IMG/VR virus record: IMGVR_UViG_2654588048_000003
Location: 14,809-78,808 of that record
DNA from: a virus
Lineage: Duplodnaviria > Caudoviricetes
Length of the DNA stretch: 64,000 nt
Direction: 5' to 3' (one strand)
Each line of letters opens with the position of its first letter. Within the stretch, counting starts at the first letter, position 1. The notes beneath the pieces are model-generated. The model worked only from the letters and a program-made list of their open reading frames with translations, made no database searches and was not told the DNA's origin. Of this stretch, positions 4,901-40,833 are shown piece by piece. The translations under genes and the position numbers were made by a program.

Positions 4901-5051
4901 AAAGAACCTCATTAAGTGATCGTGAGGTTATTATCCTTGAAAAAAATTGGAACTTTCAATATGTTTTGTGACCTTGAGTTTTAACCTATTCAGAATAAAT
5001 AACTACCTCGGTTTATATAATCCCCCACTGTTCAATATGGTGGGATAGCTA

Positions 5052-5504
5052 TTAGTACAAACACTCCGTTTTGATGTAATCTTGTAAGTACTTGGTCTGC
5101 TGCACGTTCTCCACCATCATTCGGAGGAGATCGTAATAATTTTGTTTAGCTGACTCTGTAAGTTGTGGGGGCCCTGCATCGCCCACGCTGCCGGAGGAAG
5201 TGGTTTCTGACACAGGACAGGTGGCTTGGATGAGCAGTTTACGACGGCCAGCGGCAACATCAGCCCGAAGAGTGTCAATTTCAGTCTTGGCATTGGCAAG
5301 TTCCTGAGTGTGGCGGGTATCCAGTTCATGCAGTATTTCAATATGCGTGTTCTGGTAGTTAATAGTGTCAGTCAGTTGCTGGATTTCAGTTATCTGGCCG
5401 CTATTAATACCGAGCTGTTTTTTATATCCAGAGCGGTATAAGAAAGCTGCGGCTGATGCAATAATCAATGCAATAACAACTCCGGAGGTGAAATTAAGCT
5501 TCAT
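5052..5504 (-). CDS. Rz: Rz-like i-spanin
   Basis: N-terminal TM, coiled coil, LRADVAAGRRKL, YLQDYIKTECL. Confidence 0.9.
   Translation of the reverse strand: MKLNFTSGVVIALIIASAAAFLYRSGYKKQLGINSGQITEIQQLTDTINYQNTHIEILHELDTRHTQELANAKTEIDTLRADVAAGRRKLLIQATCPVSETTSSGSVGDAGPPQLTESAKQNYYDLLRMMVENVQQTKYLQDYIKTECLY
5117..5293 (-). CDS. Rz1: Embedded Rz1-like o-spanin
   Basis: MPRLKLTLFGLMLPLAVVNC signal, Pro-rich, nested in Rz. Confidence 0.7.
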   Translation of the reverse strand: MPRLKLTLFGLMLPLAVVNCSSKPPVLCQKPLPPAAWAMQGPHNLQSQLNKIITISSE

Positions 5505-5515
5505 GATAAAAACAT

Positions 5516-5935
5516 CTAGCGCTCAGATGTCCTGCGATTATCCAGCCCACGCATAACCTTGCCTGCTGCTTTATTCCATCGGGAAAACTCTGCCGCTGCG
5601 CCGGTGTAATCACTTTGATTGAGTTTCTTCAATAAAGTGGAACCCGAAAAGTTCCCGCTGCCACAATTGAAGATAAACGAGCACAAGGCATCGAACTGGC
5701 TTTGACTCAAAGGAACTTTAACCAATCTTCTTAAGGTGGTGTATATAGGTTGGAGATCATCATGTAGGAATGCTTCGGCTTGCTGCTCTGTAATCACGTC
5801 CCCTTTTTTAACTCCTTTTGTATGACCATAACCAATGGTCCACGGCATACCGCCGGTTGCGGGATCAGGGTAGGCTTTTCGTTTCAGACCTTCGTACCGT
5901 TTGATACACTCAAGACCTTTATTGCTGATTTCCAT
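5516..5935 (-). CDS. GH24 lysozyme, with apparent premature TAG 5 codons before the natural end
   Basis: EG..KAYPDP..WTIGYGHT; reading past TAG gives MFLS-TGA overlapping the Rz ATG. Confidence 0.9.
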   Translation of the reverse strand: MEISNKGLECIKRYEGLKRKAYPDPATGGMPWTIGYGHTKGVKKGDVITEQQAEAFLHDDLQPIYTTLRRLVKVPLSQSQFDALCSFIFNCGSGNFSGSTLLKKLNQSDYTGAAAEFSRWNKAAGKVMRGLDNRRTSER

Positions 5936-14740: not shown

Positions 14741-15139
14741 ATGCGTACCTTTATTTCTGCCATCATCAAGAAACCAGCAAAAAAACAAAAAAATGCTATC
14801 AACATTAATGGCATTGTTGCCAATATCGCACAAAAAAACAGCCTGCATACAGGAACAACACATATCACCTTTTTGGCAGACCAATATCATCAGGGCAAAA
14901 ACCAGAATCACGGCATGGGCATAAAAAATAAAGATGAATTTAAACATCATATATTAACGACGTATCGGGTCAGACCAAAACATACAGAGCCTGTTCCTTG
15001 CTATAATTTAGAACCGATTGTCGATTACGGTTATGCGCTCTATAAGCGGAGAGGACGATATATGCATTTAATTGATATCATTCCTCTGATTAAAGCAGGC
15101 AAGAAAACACTGTCAGTAATAAAAATAGCCACACAATAA
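14741..15139 (+). CDS. Hypothetical early-left protein
   Basis: 132 aa ORF with GAGG RBS. Confidence 0.55.
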   Translation: MRTFISAIIKKPAKKQKNAININGIVANIAQKNSLHTGTTHITFLADQYHQGKNQNHGMGIKNKDEFKHHILTTYRVRPKHTEPVPCYNLEPIVDYGYALYKRRGRYMHLIDIIPLIKAGKKTLSVIKIATQ

Positions 15140-22277: not shown

Positions 22278-22559
22278 CTATAAGCCAAGCTCTGAGTGAG
22301 AACCAAGGCGGACAAGGCGTAATATGTCAGCGTCTGGCTTCTGATAAATCAATATCAAGTCAGGTTTAATGTGGCAGTCTCGAAAATCCTTCCAATCACC
22401 AGAAAGGGCATGATCACAATATTTCGGTTCTAGCAAGCTATCAGAGGCCAATAATTCAGTCACCGTCATAAGTGCGTCATCCAGAGTTTCACGATGACGA
22501 CCTTTCTTTTCTCTCTTGTAATCTCGCTTAAACTGGCTTGTATAATCAGTCGTCCGCAT
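22278..22559 (-). CDS. yafQ: YafQ-family mRNA interferase toxin
   Basis: FKRDYK, DHALSGDWKDFRDCHIKPDLILIY, RLGSHSEL. Confidence 0.93.
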   Translation of the reverse strand: MRTTDYTSQFKRDYKREKKGRHRETLDDALMTVTELLASDSLLEPKYCDHALSGDWKDFRDCHIKPDLILIYQKPDADILRLVRLGSHSELGL

Positions 22560-22809
22560 TGAGATCAGCCATTAAATCTTTAACTGAGGAAAATGATTTA
22601 CCGCCACCTTTGCGAGCTTCTTTCATTGCGGCTATTGTTGTCTCATTCGGTATCAGAGGCTCAAACGGCAATATCTTATCTCTTGCCACTCGCGTTAACA
22701 TCATGCGGACGGCATCTGATACAGTCAGTCCCATCGCAGCCAAAACAGCAGCCGCTTCTGCTTTAATCTCACCGTCAATACGGGTTTGTATTAGCTGGTT
22801 TGTAGCCAT
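22546..22809 (-). CDS. dinJ: DinJ/RelB antitoxin
   Basis: RID.EIKAEA..VL..MGLTVSDAVRM, PNETTIAAM. Confidence 0.92.
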   Translation of the reverse strand: MATNQLIQTRIDGEIKAEAAAVLAAMGLTVSDAVRMMLTRVARDKILPFEPLIPNETTIAAMKEARKGGGKSFSSVKDLMADLNADD

Positions 22810-22833
22810 AATAAAATCTCTCATTGAATGACG

Positions 22834-22927: not shown

Positions 22928-23491
22928 TTAGAACACATGAATTGATAGAGAAAACATATCTTCTATGTGATATCCATATCGCCTGGCCACTCCGTTGATA
23001 ATTCCTTCGGGCGTTTCCGTTCCACCTTTGAAAACTTCTGTCTTGTTGAGATGCTTATCGTAGACTTCCATCTTAATGATGTATCTGAAATTTGGTGGCT
23101 GCTTTACCGGAGCTTTCGCCTTAACTTCACCAGTAGTCCAGTATTCATAAAGAACATCGTCGCACTCATCTTGATACCGGATAACTTTATCCCTGATCGA
23201 TGCTTTAACTTTATTGGGGCTGATAGTTGCTAACCAGCCAGCAAGTTTGCGAAGGGCTAGGCAAACCATGTCTTGATTTCCTGTTTTGGTAGGTATTTCG
23301 ATTTCCGAAACACCTTTGCTAAAGCGCTGTTTTAATTTAACAAACTGAGCGCCCCAAGCTAAACCCATACCTTCAACAATAGGCTTCATTGGCACATATG
23401 GCTCGCCGTTATAATTAACGACATATAGATCTGAGCCATGAAATGGGACGTTAATAGTTTTACTTGGTTCATTAACTGGTATACTTAACAT
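22928..23491 (-). CDS. Antirepressor with P22AR N-terminal domain
   Basis: VPFHG..L...EPYVPMKPIVEGMGLAW..Q, LRKLAGWL, YQDECD.VLYEYW. Confidence 0.9.
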   Translation of the reverse strand: MLSIPVNEPSKTINVPFHGSDLYVVNYNGEPYVPMKPIVEGMGLAWGAQFVKLKQRFSKGVSEIEIPTKTGNQDMVCLALRKLAGWLATISPNKVKASIRDKVIRYQDECDDVLYEYWTTGEVKAKAPVKQPPNFRYIIKMEVYDKHLNKTEVFKGGTETPEGIINGVARRYGYHIEDMFSLSIHVF

Positions 23492-23738: not shown

Positions 23739-24497
23739 TTACGCTACTTCTACACCGTGAATCAGATGTCTGAGTGCTTTGATACCATTCTCGTTGTAAC
23801 GGAAAGCTTCGACCTGCTTATCAGAGTGAGCGGACTTATCCAGAAAGAACTTCCCGTACTGCTCATTCTTGAGGTTGTTCTTGTTGGCAATACGTCCAAT
23901 CTTGTTCGCTGACACTTCCAGCATTCCGCCTACTTCTCCAGCCGTGTAGTATTTTTCTTCCAGAGCGGGGAGAGGTACGGCTTCAAAGCCGACTATTGGG
24001 TTAACAATGTTGGCTGCTGCACACTGTTTTGCCTCACTACTCAGGTTTGGCATCAGGTCAAACAGATTGGAGATCGCATCAACCGACATCTTCAACGTTC
24101 TGGCACGACGATATTCGGGCAATCCAGATTGACTCTGTTTGATTGAATAGCTTCCTGTCTCCATAATGGATGGAAGCACGGATTCAAACACCCAATCTTG
24201 AAAACGTTCGGCAGAAGGCAAATTACTACGCATAATCAGACGGAACATGTCAGACTGACCCACAAGAATGATACCTTTCGGCTTAAACCCTAACCCTAAT
24301 TGTTCTGTATCAGCACAATTAAGTTTAATCAAAGACTTACAATGATCATTCAAAGCCTTAGCGGGCTGTACATAGCCCAAAGCCTGAGCCAATTCCACGG
24401 CAAAGAACACAGGCTTGCCTTTATATTTCAGCCCAGAGATGGTTACTAATTGGTCATTACTTGACTTGAACTCAAAATGTTTGATAATTGACTTCAT
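23739..24497 (-). CDS. Bro-N domain antirepressor-like protein
   Basis: P.FFA.ELA.ALGY, LIMRSNLPSAERFQDWVFESVLPSI. Confidence 0.9.
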   Translation of the reverse strand: MKSIIKHFEFKSSNDQLVTISGLKYKGKPVFFAVELAQALGYVQPAKALNDHCKSLIKLNCADTEQLGLGFKPKGIILVGQSDMFRLIMRSNLPSAERFQDWVFESVLPSIMETGSYSIKQSQSGLPEYRRARTLKMSVDAISNLFDLMPNLSSEAKQCAAANIVNPIVGFEAVPLPALEEKYYTAGEVGGMLEVSANKIGRIANKNNLKNEQYGKFFLDKSAHSDKQVEAFRYNENGIKALRHLIHGVEVA

Positions 24498-24685
24498 ATA
24501 TCTCTCCAGTGATATACCTATGAACACCAGCAACAGCAAACTGCTGGTTTTCTGTTTTCAGAACACTTGCAGGTGCTCTGGAAATTTGATTTGTCATTCG
24601 TTACAATGGTTAAGTTGTTTGTCTCACACGATAAATAACACTCAGGAGCCCTAGTCTGTTCGCGCAGCTAGGGCTTCGCTGCTTT

Positions 24686-24856
24686 CTATGCTGCATTCTT
24701 CCTTTGCCCTATTACTCTATTCATTCTGTCCTTCAAAATTTTCACAATCTCGGCATTTAGAGAGCGCCCGCTCTCGTTGGACTCTTCTTCATACCACTCT
24801 CTTAACTCAGGCGGCATTCTTAATGGATACGGGGGTATCCTTTGCTTGTGACTCAT
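24686..24856 (-). CDS. arc: Arc-like ribbon-helix-helix repressor (56 aa, not in ORF track)
   Basis: MSHKQRIPPYPLRMPPELREWYEEESNESGRSLNAEIVKILKDRMNRVIGQRKNAA. Confidence 0.88.
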   Translation of the reverse strand: MSHKQRIPPYPLRMPPELREWYEEESNESGRSLNAEIVKILKDRMNRVIGQRKNAA

Positions 24857-24979
24857 AATGATTCCTTTTTATCTTTCAAACCATCTTAATATAGTCAAAT
24901 GGTGGATCATAATGATTCATTTGTCAAACAGATATTTGATACCTATACTGCCAATTAGTGAGTCTAAAGGAGTCAAATA

Positions 24980-25420
24980 ATGTCACGTATAGCGCCATAC
25001 CCTTTACGAATGCCGCCTGAGTTAAGGGAAGCGTTAGAAGAGAGAGCTACAAAATCAAAGAGAAGCCTCCAGCAAGAGGTCATTTATCACATAGATATGT
25101 CGCTACAACTCGAAAAGCTTCTCGCGTCAGCGCCGCCATCATCAGACGATACCTATAAGCGAATAGCAAAGGCATTGAGACTAGAAAATGAAGTCAAAAA
25201 GAAAGATAAAAAAATTGAAGAGCTAAAGATGCAAGTCAGTCTGTTGGCTGAATCAACAAAAAACTCAGATACAGACAAATTTCGGGATATTGAAACTCAA
25301 GCAAGGTTTGCCCAAGAAGCATTAGAAAAGTTAATAAAAAATATCCCTCTAAGATATGAGGAGTTAGGTGAGAAGCTTACGCTCGCTAGAAGCATTTTTC
25401 CCAACAAAAAAGCCAAGTAG
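24980..25420 (+). CDS. Mnt-like RHH repressor with coiled-coil C-terminus
   Basis: YPLRMPPELRE.LE.RA....RSL..E; divergent from arc as in P22 immI. Confidence 0.85.
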   Translation: MSRIAPYPLRMPPELREALEERATKSKRSLQQEVIYHIDMSLQLEKLLASAPPSSDDTYKRIAKALRLENEVKKKDKKIEELKMQVSLLAESTKNSDTDKFRDIETQARFAQEALEKLIKNIPLRYEELGEKLTLARSIFPNKKAK

Positions 25421-25442
25421 GTATTATCAATTGGTTATCCAG

Positions 25443-25763
25443 CTACCGACAAATTTGGCGGTAGGGCTAAGCGGGAATTCCCACTTAGATCTGAATGAAC
25501 CGCATTGATTACTTTCAGACCAGACTGCATATTTGCAGTCTGAATATTTTTCAATGAGTTATCTATCTATTCACCCTAAGCCCTATTTCGGGCTTAGGTC
25601 AATATAACCTAAGCAGGAATTCTTGCTTAGCTCAAGTTAACTACCGTGATCTCGGTAGTTTCTACCAAGCTGCAAATATGCAGCTTGATTATTTTTCAAT
25701 GGATTATATTAAATTACTGACCTAAAAAATTTCGTAATCACTTCTCCTCAAATTGGGGAAAAG
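25443..25763. repeat. Array of sequence-diverse 22-23 bp near-perfect palindromes with IHF-like sites
   Basis: Units at 25443-25464, 25467-25488, 25521-25542, 25576-25597, 25609-25630, 25639-25660, 25666-25687, 25741-25763. Confidence 0.9.
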
Positions 25764-25797
25764 CCCACTGTAGGCCGCCCGGTGGCATATCATCAAC

Positions 25798-25819
25798 AAA
25801 AAAGCCCCGTGATGGGGCT
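25798..25819 (-). terminator. Intrinsic terminator of the TA-like operon
   Basis: AGCCCC stem with U6 on minus strand. Confidence 0.75.
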
Positions 25820-25843
25820 GTTTGTATTCTTTCTGCTATTGAG

Positions 25844-26197
25844 TTAAGCCGCTTTGTGACGTTTATTAGGCGGCTTTCTTTTTTCATTCTTCATCGCCCT
25901 ACTGTGAGCTTCGGCAAGTATCCGTTTTTTCTCACTATTGGCAAAGCGATTTAAAACTTGCCTGATTAATGGCTGATAGCCTAAACCACTAAGGTCGGCT
26001 ATCATTTTCAAATCTTCTATCAGAGATTTATTTAATCTGATTGAAATTGGCTGTAAGTCCAACGCTTCATTAATCAGATCTTCTGTTATGTCATCAGATA
26101 CTTTAACGTGAGCTTCACTGCATCCAAGCTCACCGTTATCCCACGCGTCATTAGTGGAAGCTATCAGGTGTGTTCGCTTATCAGTTTGTTTGCTCAT
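25844..26197 (-). CDS. CopG/BrnA-like antitoxin
   Basis: AWDNGELG; LQPISIRL...L..IA...GLGYQPLIRQVL RHH. Confidence 0.7.
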   Translation of the reverse strand: MSKQTDKRTHLIASTNDAWDNGELGCSEAHVKVSDDITEDLINEALDLQPISIRLNKSLIEDLKMIADLSGLGYQPLIRQVLNRFANSEKKRILAEAHSRAMKNEKRKPPNKRHKAA

Positions 26198-39890: not shown

Positions 39891-40297
39891 ACTCTTACCT
39901 TTTTCAGATTCATTTCTTCGTCAGTCGGCAGGCGGTAAAATCCGCTTGTCTCTCTGATACCAATGTCCATTAGCATTATCCCGAACTCATGCAGGAAAGC
40001 ATTCATGTAACGCTTACCGCGTTTACTAAGCTCTGGTGCAACACCACCTATAAAGACGACGCGCTCACTGGGCTTTTTCTCATATGGCTCAAGTAGCCTA
40101 TCGTAAAACAATGCCTGACTACTGGAACTGAGCTTTTCATTTAGCCTGCCATCAAGCAGGCCAGCAATGAAATGCTGGTTGACCTGTATGTCCCCAAACA
40201 GATGTCGATACACTAGGCTCTGATTGATTTTCATTAGGTGATAACAGTAGGCTTCGGCAACACGCCAGCATAAAAACTCATGGGTTGGCATTCTCAT
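39887..40297 (-). CDS. Hypothetical protein
   Basis: 136 aa, coupled to KilA-N gene. Confidence 0.65.
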   Translation of the reverse strand: MRMPTHEFLCWRVAEAYCYHLMKINQSLVYRHLFGDIQVNQHFIAGLLDGRLNEKLSSSSQALFYDRLLEPYEKKPSERVVFIGGVAPELSKRGKRYMNAFLHEFGIMLMDIGIRETSGFYRLPTDEEMNLKKVRV

Positions 40298-40833
40298 GAT
40301 TTCACTTCCTCCAGACCGGGAATGGAAAATTGTATTTCTTTAGCCAGCAATTCTCTGTCTGATTCAATCCTCTGCTTCTCGCCACCAACGCCCCAGCTAT
40401 TCATTATTCTGGCGGCCGTACTAACCCTTCGTTTCTTGCTTTGATACTCAAGTTCAAGTCGATTGGCTTGGGCAAATTTGCTTAAGTGACCAAGAATAAA
40501 AGCACGGAATGTTTGGTAAACTTTCACCTCGAACGCTGGAGAGAGCCAAGCAGCATAACGAAGAGCAATTAACTCATGTGCCCATGTGCCGCGATAAGCG
40601 CCCCCACGAATAACATCAAGTATTTGATTTTGCTCCAAAGTGTTTTTTAGCACTTTGGAAACTTCATCTATAAATGCTTGAATTCCATCGGAAGAAAGAA
40701 ACTGACTAGGCACCTGCCACTTTTGCGCTAAGCCTCCCGCTATTGCTGCCTTGTGCAGGTCGTTAAGGTTATAAGTTCCGTGCTCATTACTACGGACTTG
40801 AATGTTTTCAATTACGATAGTTGGGTAATTCAT
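40294..40833 (-). CDS. KilA-N domain protein
   Basis: YNLNDLHKA, GTWAH..IAL.YAAWLSPAFEVKV. Confidence 0.92.
   Translation of the reverse strand: MNYPTIVIENIQVRSNEHGTYNLNDLHKAAIAGGLAQKWQVPSQFLSSDGIQAFIDEVSKVLKNTLEQNQILDVIRGGAYRGTWAHELIALRYAAWLSPAFEVKVYQTFRAFILGHLSKFAQANRLELEYQSKKRRVSTAARIMNSWGVGGEKQRIESDRELLAKEIQFSIPGLEEVKS

Follow-up and report, generated by a model that had tools for sequence, protein, structure and literature searches.

A cassette of near-exact copies of palindromes from the antirepressor genes of other phages, placed beside an Arc/Mnt-like repressor gene in a Xenorhabdus-type prophage

Among the closest described relatives of the element treated here, an array of eight short palindromes in the 3' flank of an Arc/Mnt-like repressor gene, are the sites of the Roi/Rha family, to which Roi of HK022 and the rha genes of phi80 and P22 belong. 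The array lies at 25421-25790 of a stretch of 64,000 nucleotides (hereafter the window; positions 14,809 to 78,808 of IMG/VR record IMGVR_UViG_2654588048_000003), which is part of a 78.8-kb provirus record, and both its genes and the array itself have their nearest relatives in Xenorhabdus. Clerget and Boccard (1996) are reported to have found a binding site for HK022 Roi inside the roi gene, adjacent to one for the integration host factor (IHF). The rha gene of P22 has an intragenic dyad, at about codon 81, with a strict IHF-like motif directly after it, and the eighth unit of the array derives from genes of this family. The array sites differ from those of the Roi/Rha genes in that they are copies standing outside genes, represent many alleles, and come mostly from KilA-N genes rather than from Rha genes. 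We know of no described array of Roi/Rha-type sites, and a literature search of open-access full text found no description of the intragenic KilA-N palindrome reported below or of arrays of this kind.

A second group of systems shares the setting. The immI antisense regulators of antirepressor genes, namely sar of P22, c4 of P1, CI/isrK of P4 and the exclusion RNA STnc6030 of BTP1, belong to the same mnt/arc/ant module as the array, one whose logic is to silence antirepressors, and sar homologues occur in loci related to the one described here. The array differs from them in having many units of mixed orientation, in that it would target the middle of coding sequences and not a ribosome-binding site, and in having no Rfam match: a search of Rfam 15, whose families include sar, C4 and isrK, gave nothing near the gathering score in 25421-25790, and C4 and isrK had no matches in six related loci.

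The array also has some features in common with several classes of repeated DNA. Like the repetitive extragenic palindromes (REP) and bacterial interspersed mosaic elements (BIMEs), it is a cluster of short imperfect palindromes in alternating orientation beside the 3' end of a gene, and an IHF site forms part of some BIMEs. Its units, however, are not high-copy and are copies of gene-internal segments. When five Xenorhabdus genomes were scanned, CTAAG-N12-CTTAG was found 0-3 times per genome vs 0-4 times for a reversed-pattern control, and CTACCG-N10-CGGTAG, with one mismatch allowed, 2-7 times vs 28-31 times for the control. With CRISPR arrays this array has in common an ordered series of short, diverse, foreign-derived segments that varies between strains at one end. 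Unlike in CRISPR, there are no direct repeats between the units, and the palindrome itself sets the unit boundaries; direct repeats in the region 25200-26000 are limited to two small families of two copies each, of 14 nt and 8 nt, and no cas genes are found among the annotated neighbouring genes. The rejection of CRISPR and REP in a preliminary description of this DNA therefore holds. Nor is there an integrase beside the array among the annotated neighbouring genes, as there would be for the attC sites of an integron. Finally, the iterons of lambdoid origins are arrays of dyad-symmetric sites of about 20 bp in the tolerant, linker-coding part of the O gene. Iterons are one sequence for one protein, whereas the KilA-N genes have a single palindrome each and the units of the array differ from one another.

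All eight palindromes that the preliminary description had reported are present in the array. Repeat finding recovered those at 25443, 25467, 25521, 25575/6, 25639 and 25666, and the unit at 25609 was recovered by a 22-nt palindrome scan together with a comparison of cores. The eighth unit (25741-25763) is the weakest, with nine Watson-Crick pairs, one G.T pair and one mismatch by hand count. When a hairpin was defined as at least 8 pairs with at most one mismatch and a loop of at most 8, the region 25421-25790 held 8 hairpins, as compared with a mean of 0.376 and a maximum of 4 in 1000 dinucleotide-preserving shuffles, none of which reached 8; the array thus withstood the comparison with shuffled sequence that had been proposed as its first check. 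By the same definition the density over the whole window is 1.25 per kb, and the densest 370-nt windows all fall at the array. The concentration is equally clear with other measures. The window has 10 perfect 8-bp stems whose loop is no longer than 6, and four of these lie inside 25521-25687; all six of the window's 22-nt palindromes with at most one mismatch in 11 pairs fall in 25443-25687, as do 7 of the 20 with at most two mismatches. The RNA folding z-score of the array against shuffles is -9.21 for the + strand and -9.12 for the - strand. The units had been described as sequence-diverse, and their sequences do differ, but they are not wholly unrelated. Three arm families can be seen: CTACCG..CGGTAG in the units at 25443 and 25640, CTAAGC..GCTTAG in those at 25467, 25576 and 25609, and CTGCA-N4-TGCAG in those at 25521 and 25666, the last two also sharing a conserved A/T-rich 3' flank. 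In the following, the units of these families are called A1 and A2, B1 to B3, and C1 and C2, respectively, and loci and genomes are given by L and G numbers.

We are confident in describing the array as an inserted 379-bp cassette of near-exact copies of allele-specific signature palindromes from the KilA-N genes (seven units) and a Rha/Ant1-type gene (one unit) of other phages, placed beside an Arc/Mnt-like repressor gene. The KilA-N matches share one protein position, a variable stretch between a helix ending in ...ELIxEL and a strand with GG..GTFAHELLA in the KilA-N domain. For A1, B1, B2, B3 and A2 there are matches of about 25 bp, at 96-100% identity, inside ORFs (open reading frames) of 227-282 aa in other Xenorhabdus genomes. 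Unit A1 (CTACCG type, 25443-25464, + strand, sense) is identical at 22/22 positions to the KilA-N core of L074 and L113, which codes for ELPTNLAVG, and B1 (CTAAGC type, 25467-25488, + strand, sense) is identical at 22/22 to the cores of L076, L112 and L124, which code for ELSGNSHLG. Around B2 (CTAAGC type, 25576-25597, + strand, sense), the segment 25578-25602 is 96% identical to L075, and the core agrees at 20/22 positions, coding for QSPISGLGQ. Two of these five units lie on the - strand and are antisense on the + strand. One is B3 (CTAAGC type, 25609-25630), for which 25607-25634 matches L070 (DELSKNSCLG) at 100% identity and the core agrees with that of L125 at 22/22 positions. The other is A2 (ACTACCG type, 25639-25660), for which 25637-25661 matches L071 and L072 (QTTEITVVK) at 100% identity and the core agrees with that of L175 at 22/22 positions.

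The two CTGCA-type units are larger modules. C1 is a 59-bp KilA-N relic (25503-25561, - strand, on which it is sense) with its palindrome at 25521-25542 and an IHF-like motif at 25549-25561; the module is 96.6% identical to L019 2805-2863, in the interior of a 307-aa gene that consists of KilA-N and ANT domains by Pfam. C2 (25666-25706, - strand), with its palindrome at 25666-25687 and an IHF-like motif at 25694-25706, has 33-37-bp matches of 88-94% in L066, L079, L081 and L084, in stretches of P4-like elements that we read as non-coding, their long open frames being spurious in our view; it also matches an internal part of the L020 KilA-N gene over 32 bp (90.6%), and its core agrees with a KilA-N core at 18/22 positions. 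The eighth unit is a relic of a Rha/Ant1-type antirepressor gene of 49-50 bp (25733-25782, + strand, sense) around the palindrome at 25741-25763. Over these 49-50 bp it shares 88-92% identity with Rha-type antirepressor genes from APSE phages, a Cronobacter phage, P1-like plasmids of E. coli, and Xenorhabdus. Of 5426 E. coli genomes, 31 have a match to this unit, in every case on a plasmid; the 10 plasmids listed are 92-129 kb in size, and the one plasmid that was inspected has the icd-Rha gene order of the P1 immI region.

Apart from C1 and the eighth unit, which are relics of 49-59 bp, the homology between array and genes covers the palindrome plus 1-9 nt. When compared with a catalogue of 49 KilA-N cores, the units of the window agree at 22/22 positions five times, at 20/22 once (B2) and at 18/22 once (C2). 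The other arrays described below gave a similar picture: four of six hairpins agree at 19/22 or more in L004, four of six at 20/22 or more in L043, and two of five at 21/22 or more in L031, the remaining hairpins having no match in the 49-core catalogue. Relative to the source genes, four units are sense and four antisense on the + strand. The idea of a library of sites matching palindromes inside antirepressor-type genes is hereby borne out, with five units at 22/22 to KilA-N cores and the eighth unit matching Rha-type genes. As for the four gene families in which such matches had been anticipated, they were found in KilA-N and Rha genes, but none were found in Bro-N or P22_AR genes.

The comparison with related loci shows the array as an insert. 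A block of 379 bp (25415-25793) carries all eight units and is flanked by two copies of the 13-nt word CAACAAAAAAGCC. The left copy (25402-25414, + strand) codes for the last codons of the mnt-like gene, and the right copy (25794-25806) forms, together with a two-way intrinsic terminator with its stem at 25803-25819, the segment 25794-25823. In L005 and L006, two relatives that lack an array, the end of the mnt-like gene falls within the terminator, and CAACAAAAAAGCC runs into CCGTGATGGGGCT; in the window, the 379-bp block separates the stop codon of the mnt-like gene from the gene's terminator. The insert is absent in L005, L006 and most of 20 other terminator loci examined, and it is present with differing unit content in L004, L043, L031 and a contig of run X1, which with the window makes five array versions, all from Xenorhabdus-type loci. 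At least five hairpins in the 450 nt before the shared terminator were found in four of 25 loci, i.e., the window, L004, L031 and L043. Among 23 terminator places in Xenorhabdus genomes, two have an array (in G003, which is L031, and in G023, which is L043), 20 others have 0-3 hairpins, and one, in G019, is outside the hairpin count.

Gain and loss of units between related loci, another of the proposed checks, can be seen directly. The arrays have their left end (units A1 and B1) in common and diverge beyond it. Up to and including 25660, the window and the contig of run X1 are colinear; beyond this point the contig has 108 other letters instead of 25661-25797. The A1-B1 start is carried by two different mnt alleles, of 146 aa in the window and 117 aa in L043. 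Genomes with matches to the array include 22 of 36 in Xenorhabdus and 2 of 16 in Photorhabdus. Searches further afield added little: a scan that gave 72 stretches contained only the contig of L004 as a true array; the A-B composite was found in none of the 201 loci checked from two further pattern scans, the matches being almost all at chance level and the pattern of the metagenome scan too loose; there was no match to the array in a plasmid collection; and a phage collection queried with 25421-25740 gave matches at chance level only.

The terminator itself is widespread. Together with the preceding A-run it is fused to the 3' ends of many unrelated Xenorhabdus genes, all ending in ...NKKAP, at 23 places in 15 of 36 Xenorhabdus genomes, and these genes include Arc-type repressors, S24-type repressor-like proteins and others. 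Terminator loci are 25794-25823 of the window, L005, L006, L086, L089, L090, L098-L101 and L103-L105. It looks like a shared module boundary for recombination.

The palindrome inside the KilA-N genes was surveyed in 80 IMG/VR loci that were gathered with a KilA-N alignment and gave 70 distinct genes from prophages and metagenome-derived viral contigs. Of the 70 genes, 61 have a palindrome of 8 or more pairs with its centre 40-72 nt ahead of the point where the GTFAH motif ends (expected 0.045, with a background of 1.36 per kb in the same loci), and in nearly all cases this distance is 46, 58, 60 or 66 nt. Divergent KilA-N genes also carry a palindrome there, among them the record's own gene at 40294-40833 and a second KilA-N gene of L019. 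No fewer than 49 different sequences occur among the palindromes, and related sequences show compensatory differences. In 46 of 2775 gene pairs the core is at least 95% identical and a 90-nt flank less than 75% identical, and identical 22-nt cores are found in genes with flanks of only 52-78% identity, the tract of identity being the palindrome plus or minus a few nt. The reverse case, both flanks at least 90% identical with a different core, was found in 0 of the 2775 pairs. The residues coded by the palindrome form a helix end and the following loop, the part of the fold model with the lowest confidence (block 61-70, with a mean predicted local distance difference test score, pLDDT, of 53). 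A fold search with the KilA-N domain model gave no match at E <=0.001, with weak rows for Mbp1 and DdrC; the KilA-N and Rha N-terminal domains are read as belonging to DNA-binding families. Rha-type genes from distant hosts share a single type of palindrome, which the P1-like copy of E. coli has in perfect form and which shows one compensatory change in L047.

One such E. coli plasmid (L464, 93 kb) has at 1173-2083 a P1-like immI region with Ref, an icd-like gene and a Rha-family gene. This Rha-type gene is flagged as a pseudogene without its C-terminus, yet it keeps a perfect 23-nt palindrome of the type of the eighth unit. Another observation concerns the palindrome centres in the KilA-N genes. 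Between L019 2823-2844 and L020 11900-11921, the central 4-8 nt are reverse-complemented with the arms and flanks unchanged, and the same flip of the loop is seen in A2-type cores, between L071 on the one side and L175 and the window (25639-25660) on the other. The flip alters two coded residues (NM to YL) and is a mark of template switching or inversion at a hairpin.

Several ordinary readings of the units were considered, and most of them were set aside. The palindrome of a gene has no second copy elsewhere in its locus or record, and it is therefore not an operator shared with phage promoters. Operators of a resident repressor were rejected likewise: no unit is recopied in the 64-kb window at 5 mismatches or fewer, bar related units and a chance-level match at 2193, the record's own KilA-N palindrome is single in the 78.8-kb record, and the different mnt alleles of the window and L043 share A1 and B1. 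The preliminary description had also excluded a cluster of terminators. This is right only in part: the units at 25521 and 25666 score as intrinsic-terminator-like on the + strand, a resemblance that they owe to their shared A/T-rich 3' flank. A G+C-rich stem with a T-run is found at 25521-25542, at 25666-25687 (9 pairs, 5 G-C) and at 25803-25819; five other units lack this combination, with a weak call on the minus strand at 25609-25630. A LexA box for the CTGCA units was rejected by eye, the spacing being two bases short of that of the box, and so was a programmed frameshift signal, since there is no slippery heptamer and the other unit types come without an A-run. Two short ORFs, at 25368-25508 (+) and 25435-25554 (-), were judged by eye as unlikely to be coding; one has a GTG start inside mnt in another frame, and the other a TTG start. 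These ORFs read A1 and B1 (C1 on the other strand) in the frames of the source genes, as LPTNLAVG-LSGNSHL, and we read the short ORFs over the units as a by-product of the copying and of the 24-nt spacing.

The units have other homes as well. The CTGCA-type module occurs in a non-coding region of about 0.9 kb in P4-like elements, which have an AlpA-like gene, a Rha-like gene and a primase, and it is because of this second location that the module is multi-copy in Xenorhabdus; the array query finds up to 9 matching places per Xenorhabdus genome, only some of them within P4-like elements. In the P4-like satellites L050, L053 and L060, hairpins of the signature type lie 3' of a small ORF of the Pfam family DUF3950, which to our own reading has a ribbon-helix-helix look, and the type of palindrome differs between the elements. 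The product of this small gene was considered as a type-specific partner and rejected, as near-identical ORFs in L050, L053 and L060 go with different palindrome types. The family of P4-like integrative elements comprises L050, L051, L053, L060, L065 and L106 (in Xenorhabdus G050, G037, G028, G040, G051 and G052), which also carry an integrase. Their non-coding regions of about 0.9 kb are packed with palindromes, some adjoining perfect IHF-like motifs, and the long open frames over these regions are probably spurious. A further setting is an 89-aa gene without a Pfam family, which is followed by CTAAG- and CTACCG-type palindromes in L034 (about 700-1090), L054 (1500-1853) and L078 (1233-1610).

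What the array does is a matter on which we can offer only a tentative preference. It is quite possible that the units are double-stranded DNA sites that present the control sites of foreign antirepressor genes in trans and, we infer, do so together with IHF. Each unit would present the control site that a foreign antirepressor gene carries within its own coding sequence, and whatever recognises a given signature at its original place would be attracted to the resident mnt gene's 3' flank as well. The candidate for this factor is the DNA-binding protein of the antirepressor family itself, by the reported precedent of Roi. The two CTGCA-type units with their adjoining IHF-like motifs might nucleate an IHF-bent nucleoprotein complex, and the prophage could in this way soak up or sense antirepressors from co-resident or incoming phages and satellites. 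The mixed orientation of the units was counted in favour of double-stranded DNA over an RNA hairpin, and many KilA-N palindromes are symmetric through the centre (loop 0), which is not required of an RNA hairpin acting in cis. A relaxed IHF-like motif lies within 45 nt of the CTGCA-type palindrome in 35 of 42 distinct contexts (expected 0.054), and the strict consensus in 13 of the 42 vs 0.033 expected, the contexts in both counts being homologous and not independent. The strict form is found mainly in the non-coding copies, i.e., in satellites and arrays, where codons impose no constraint. It is stated in published reports that IHF regulates the rha gene (PMC4936722) and that antirepressors act across prophages (PMC3121763).

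Several points weigh against DNA sites acting in trans. The only allele-specific part of the KilA-N protein is the loop that is coded by the palindrome itself, and it is hard to believe that at least 49 loop types each recognise their own coding DNA; the base pairing of like sequences accounts more simply for the matched specificity. A single-copy decoy titrates little protein. The IHF-like motif occurs only with the CTGCA-type units, and the motif in the window departs from the strict consensus at position 2. At the spot homologous to the eighth unit, HK022 roi has no palindrome of 7 or more pairs. Moreover, all arrays that were found are placed within a transcription unit, with a stop codon on one side and a terminator on the other, which fits a role as RNA at least equally well.

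Such an RNA is the first alternative, and we consider it somewhat unlikely. The array would be the 3' untranslated region of the mnt-like mRNA, and its hairpins, or pieces of it, would pair with the palindromes in the mRNAs of KilA-N or Rha antirepressors, the antisense units fully and the sense units through their self-complementarity. Translation would be blocked or decay triggered, giving a putative anti-antirepressor like sar, c4 or STnc6030, only multi-specific. All four arrays that were read (window, L004, L043 and L031) have the required position between stop codon and terminator, and the hairpins of varying type in the satellites L050, L053 and L060 also lie 3' of a small ORF. On the strand that is sense for mnt, C1 offers 59 nt of antisense sequence to a KilA-N gene, and both C1 and C2 score as terminators there. 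Palindromy that includes the centre is what an intermolecular duplex of like sequences would select, and pairing of like with like explains the matched specificity without 49 or more co-evolved proteins; half of the units, however, are in sense orientation, and the stable local hairpins disfavour pairing in trans. The minimum free energy fold of the + strand pairs B1 with B3. Precedents exist nearby, although the array itself has no Rfam match. L019 has clear sar homologues in its related immI region, one of 48.1 bits at 5005-5073 and one of 34.6 bits at 5683-5754, over the start of a KilA-N gene, and the window has a weak sar match at 24613-24680 (+; 21.7 bits against a gathering score of 43) between the arc gene and the Bro-N antirepressor gene. 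Also counted for this explanation is the prophage antisense RNA STnc6030, which excludes a superinfecting phage by complementarity (PMC7067206). Against it, the IHF-like motif, a feature of DNA, is retained in the non-coding copies, and in the satellites it is perfect where the T-run is degraded. Mismatches compatible with wobble pairing give a strand asymmetry that is weak, about 14 A.C vs 5 G.T on the sense strand (hand count with related sequences collapsed; 19 vs 6 in the raw count), and the collapsed count is too weak to choose between DNA and RNA.

The units may also have no function in trans, an explanation we regard as unlikely. They would be pieces of antirepressor genes, prone to recombination or resistant to exonuclease, that accumulated by illegitimate recombination or template switching at a tolerated site, and at most they would act as generic hairpins at the 3' end, by which the mnt transcript is stabilised or terminated. 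The rarity of arrays (4 of 25 terminator loci and none further in the pattern scans) speaks for this, as does the variation in unit content between close relatives. C1 and the eighth unit are plain gene relics of 49-59 bp. The flips of the loop between unchanged flanks (L019 vs L020, and the A2 type) are a sign of template switching, and relics of KilA-N genes are to be expected at this place, since in L019 a convergent KilA-N gene lies downstream of the ribbon-helix-helix gene. By our own reasoning, the combined demands of coding and pairing can be enough to keep the cores unchanged, with no specific partner involved. Ordinary decay, however, would leave other parts of the genes as well, whereas here all eight pieces have the palindrome at their centre, and in six the flanks extend for about 9 nt at most. 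The pieces derive from at least 7 different alleles, five cores are identical at 22/22 positions to genes of other genomes, and like units recur in satellites and beside the 89-aa gene.

A bolder idea, which we hold to be improbable, is that the array is a heritable and expandable record of foreign antirepressor signatures, used in a sequence-specific manner to neutralise the induction switches of those phages or to eavesdrop on them. Short hairpin-forming fragments of foreign KilA-N and Rha genes would be acquired and appended on the distal side of the conserved proximal end, and the hypervariable palindrome at its fixed site in KilA-N would be the address of each allele. The record could be put to use by pairing of like with like or by binding of the cognate protein, and would amount to a memory without repeats or Cas proteins. 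Least probable of all is a set of silent donor cassettes feeding gene conversion that switches the type of the variable KilA-N loop: the identical 22-nt cores amid flanks of 52-78% identity are expected from short-patch transfer and the coded segment is a low-confidence surface loop (61-70, mean pLDDT 53), but the units have almost no flanking homology to guide conversion, the sole KilA-N gene of the array-bearing record is divergent, 15 kb away and of a palindrome type absent from the array, palindromes are universal in KilA-N genes where arrays are rare, and the survey of 2775 gene pairs returned none with well-conserved flanks around a different core.

If true, a signal at the nucleic-acid level inside these common phage switch genes would be a new layer of control for prophage induction, and the intragenic palindromes would offer a handle on the old and unexplained IHF dependence of rha and roi. 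Some Xenorhabdus prophages gather the signals of many alleles beside a maintenance repressor gene, and P4-like satellites hold them in a control region. As both prophages and satellites carry collected signals, the cross-talk between phage and satellite becomes directly testable with defined 22-bp sites. Should the array prove to be a record, it would be an immune or surveillance memory resting on a previously unnoticed universal feature of KilA-N genes.

The array sits in a module that resembles the immI region of P22. The genetic context had been described as mnt, arc and two antirepressor genes with toxin-antitoxin-like pairs on both sides, and Pfam confirmed it. From left to right there are a RelB/YafQ pair (22278-22824), a P22_AR_N antirepressor gene (22928-23491), a Bro-N antirepressor gene (23739-24539), an Arc gene (24686-24856) and the Arc/Mnt-like ribbon-helix-helix gene of 146 aa (24980-25420, + strand; Pfam Arc PF03869, 24.6 bits against a cut-off of 20.4), whose 3' flank holds the array, followed by a CopG-antitoxin-like gene (25844-26197). 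A promoter-like site for the mnt-like gene, with 10 of 12 matches, is found at 24921-24949. The record's own KilA-N gene (40294-40833, - strand) carries its palindrome at 40635-40658, at the same protein position as in the other KilA-N genes, and its type is not represented in the array. This gene lies outside the immI module, between the lysis cassette and the terminase genes, a placement that resembles that of the Ant gene after Rz in the Cronobacter phage ENT47670.

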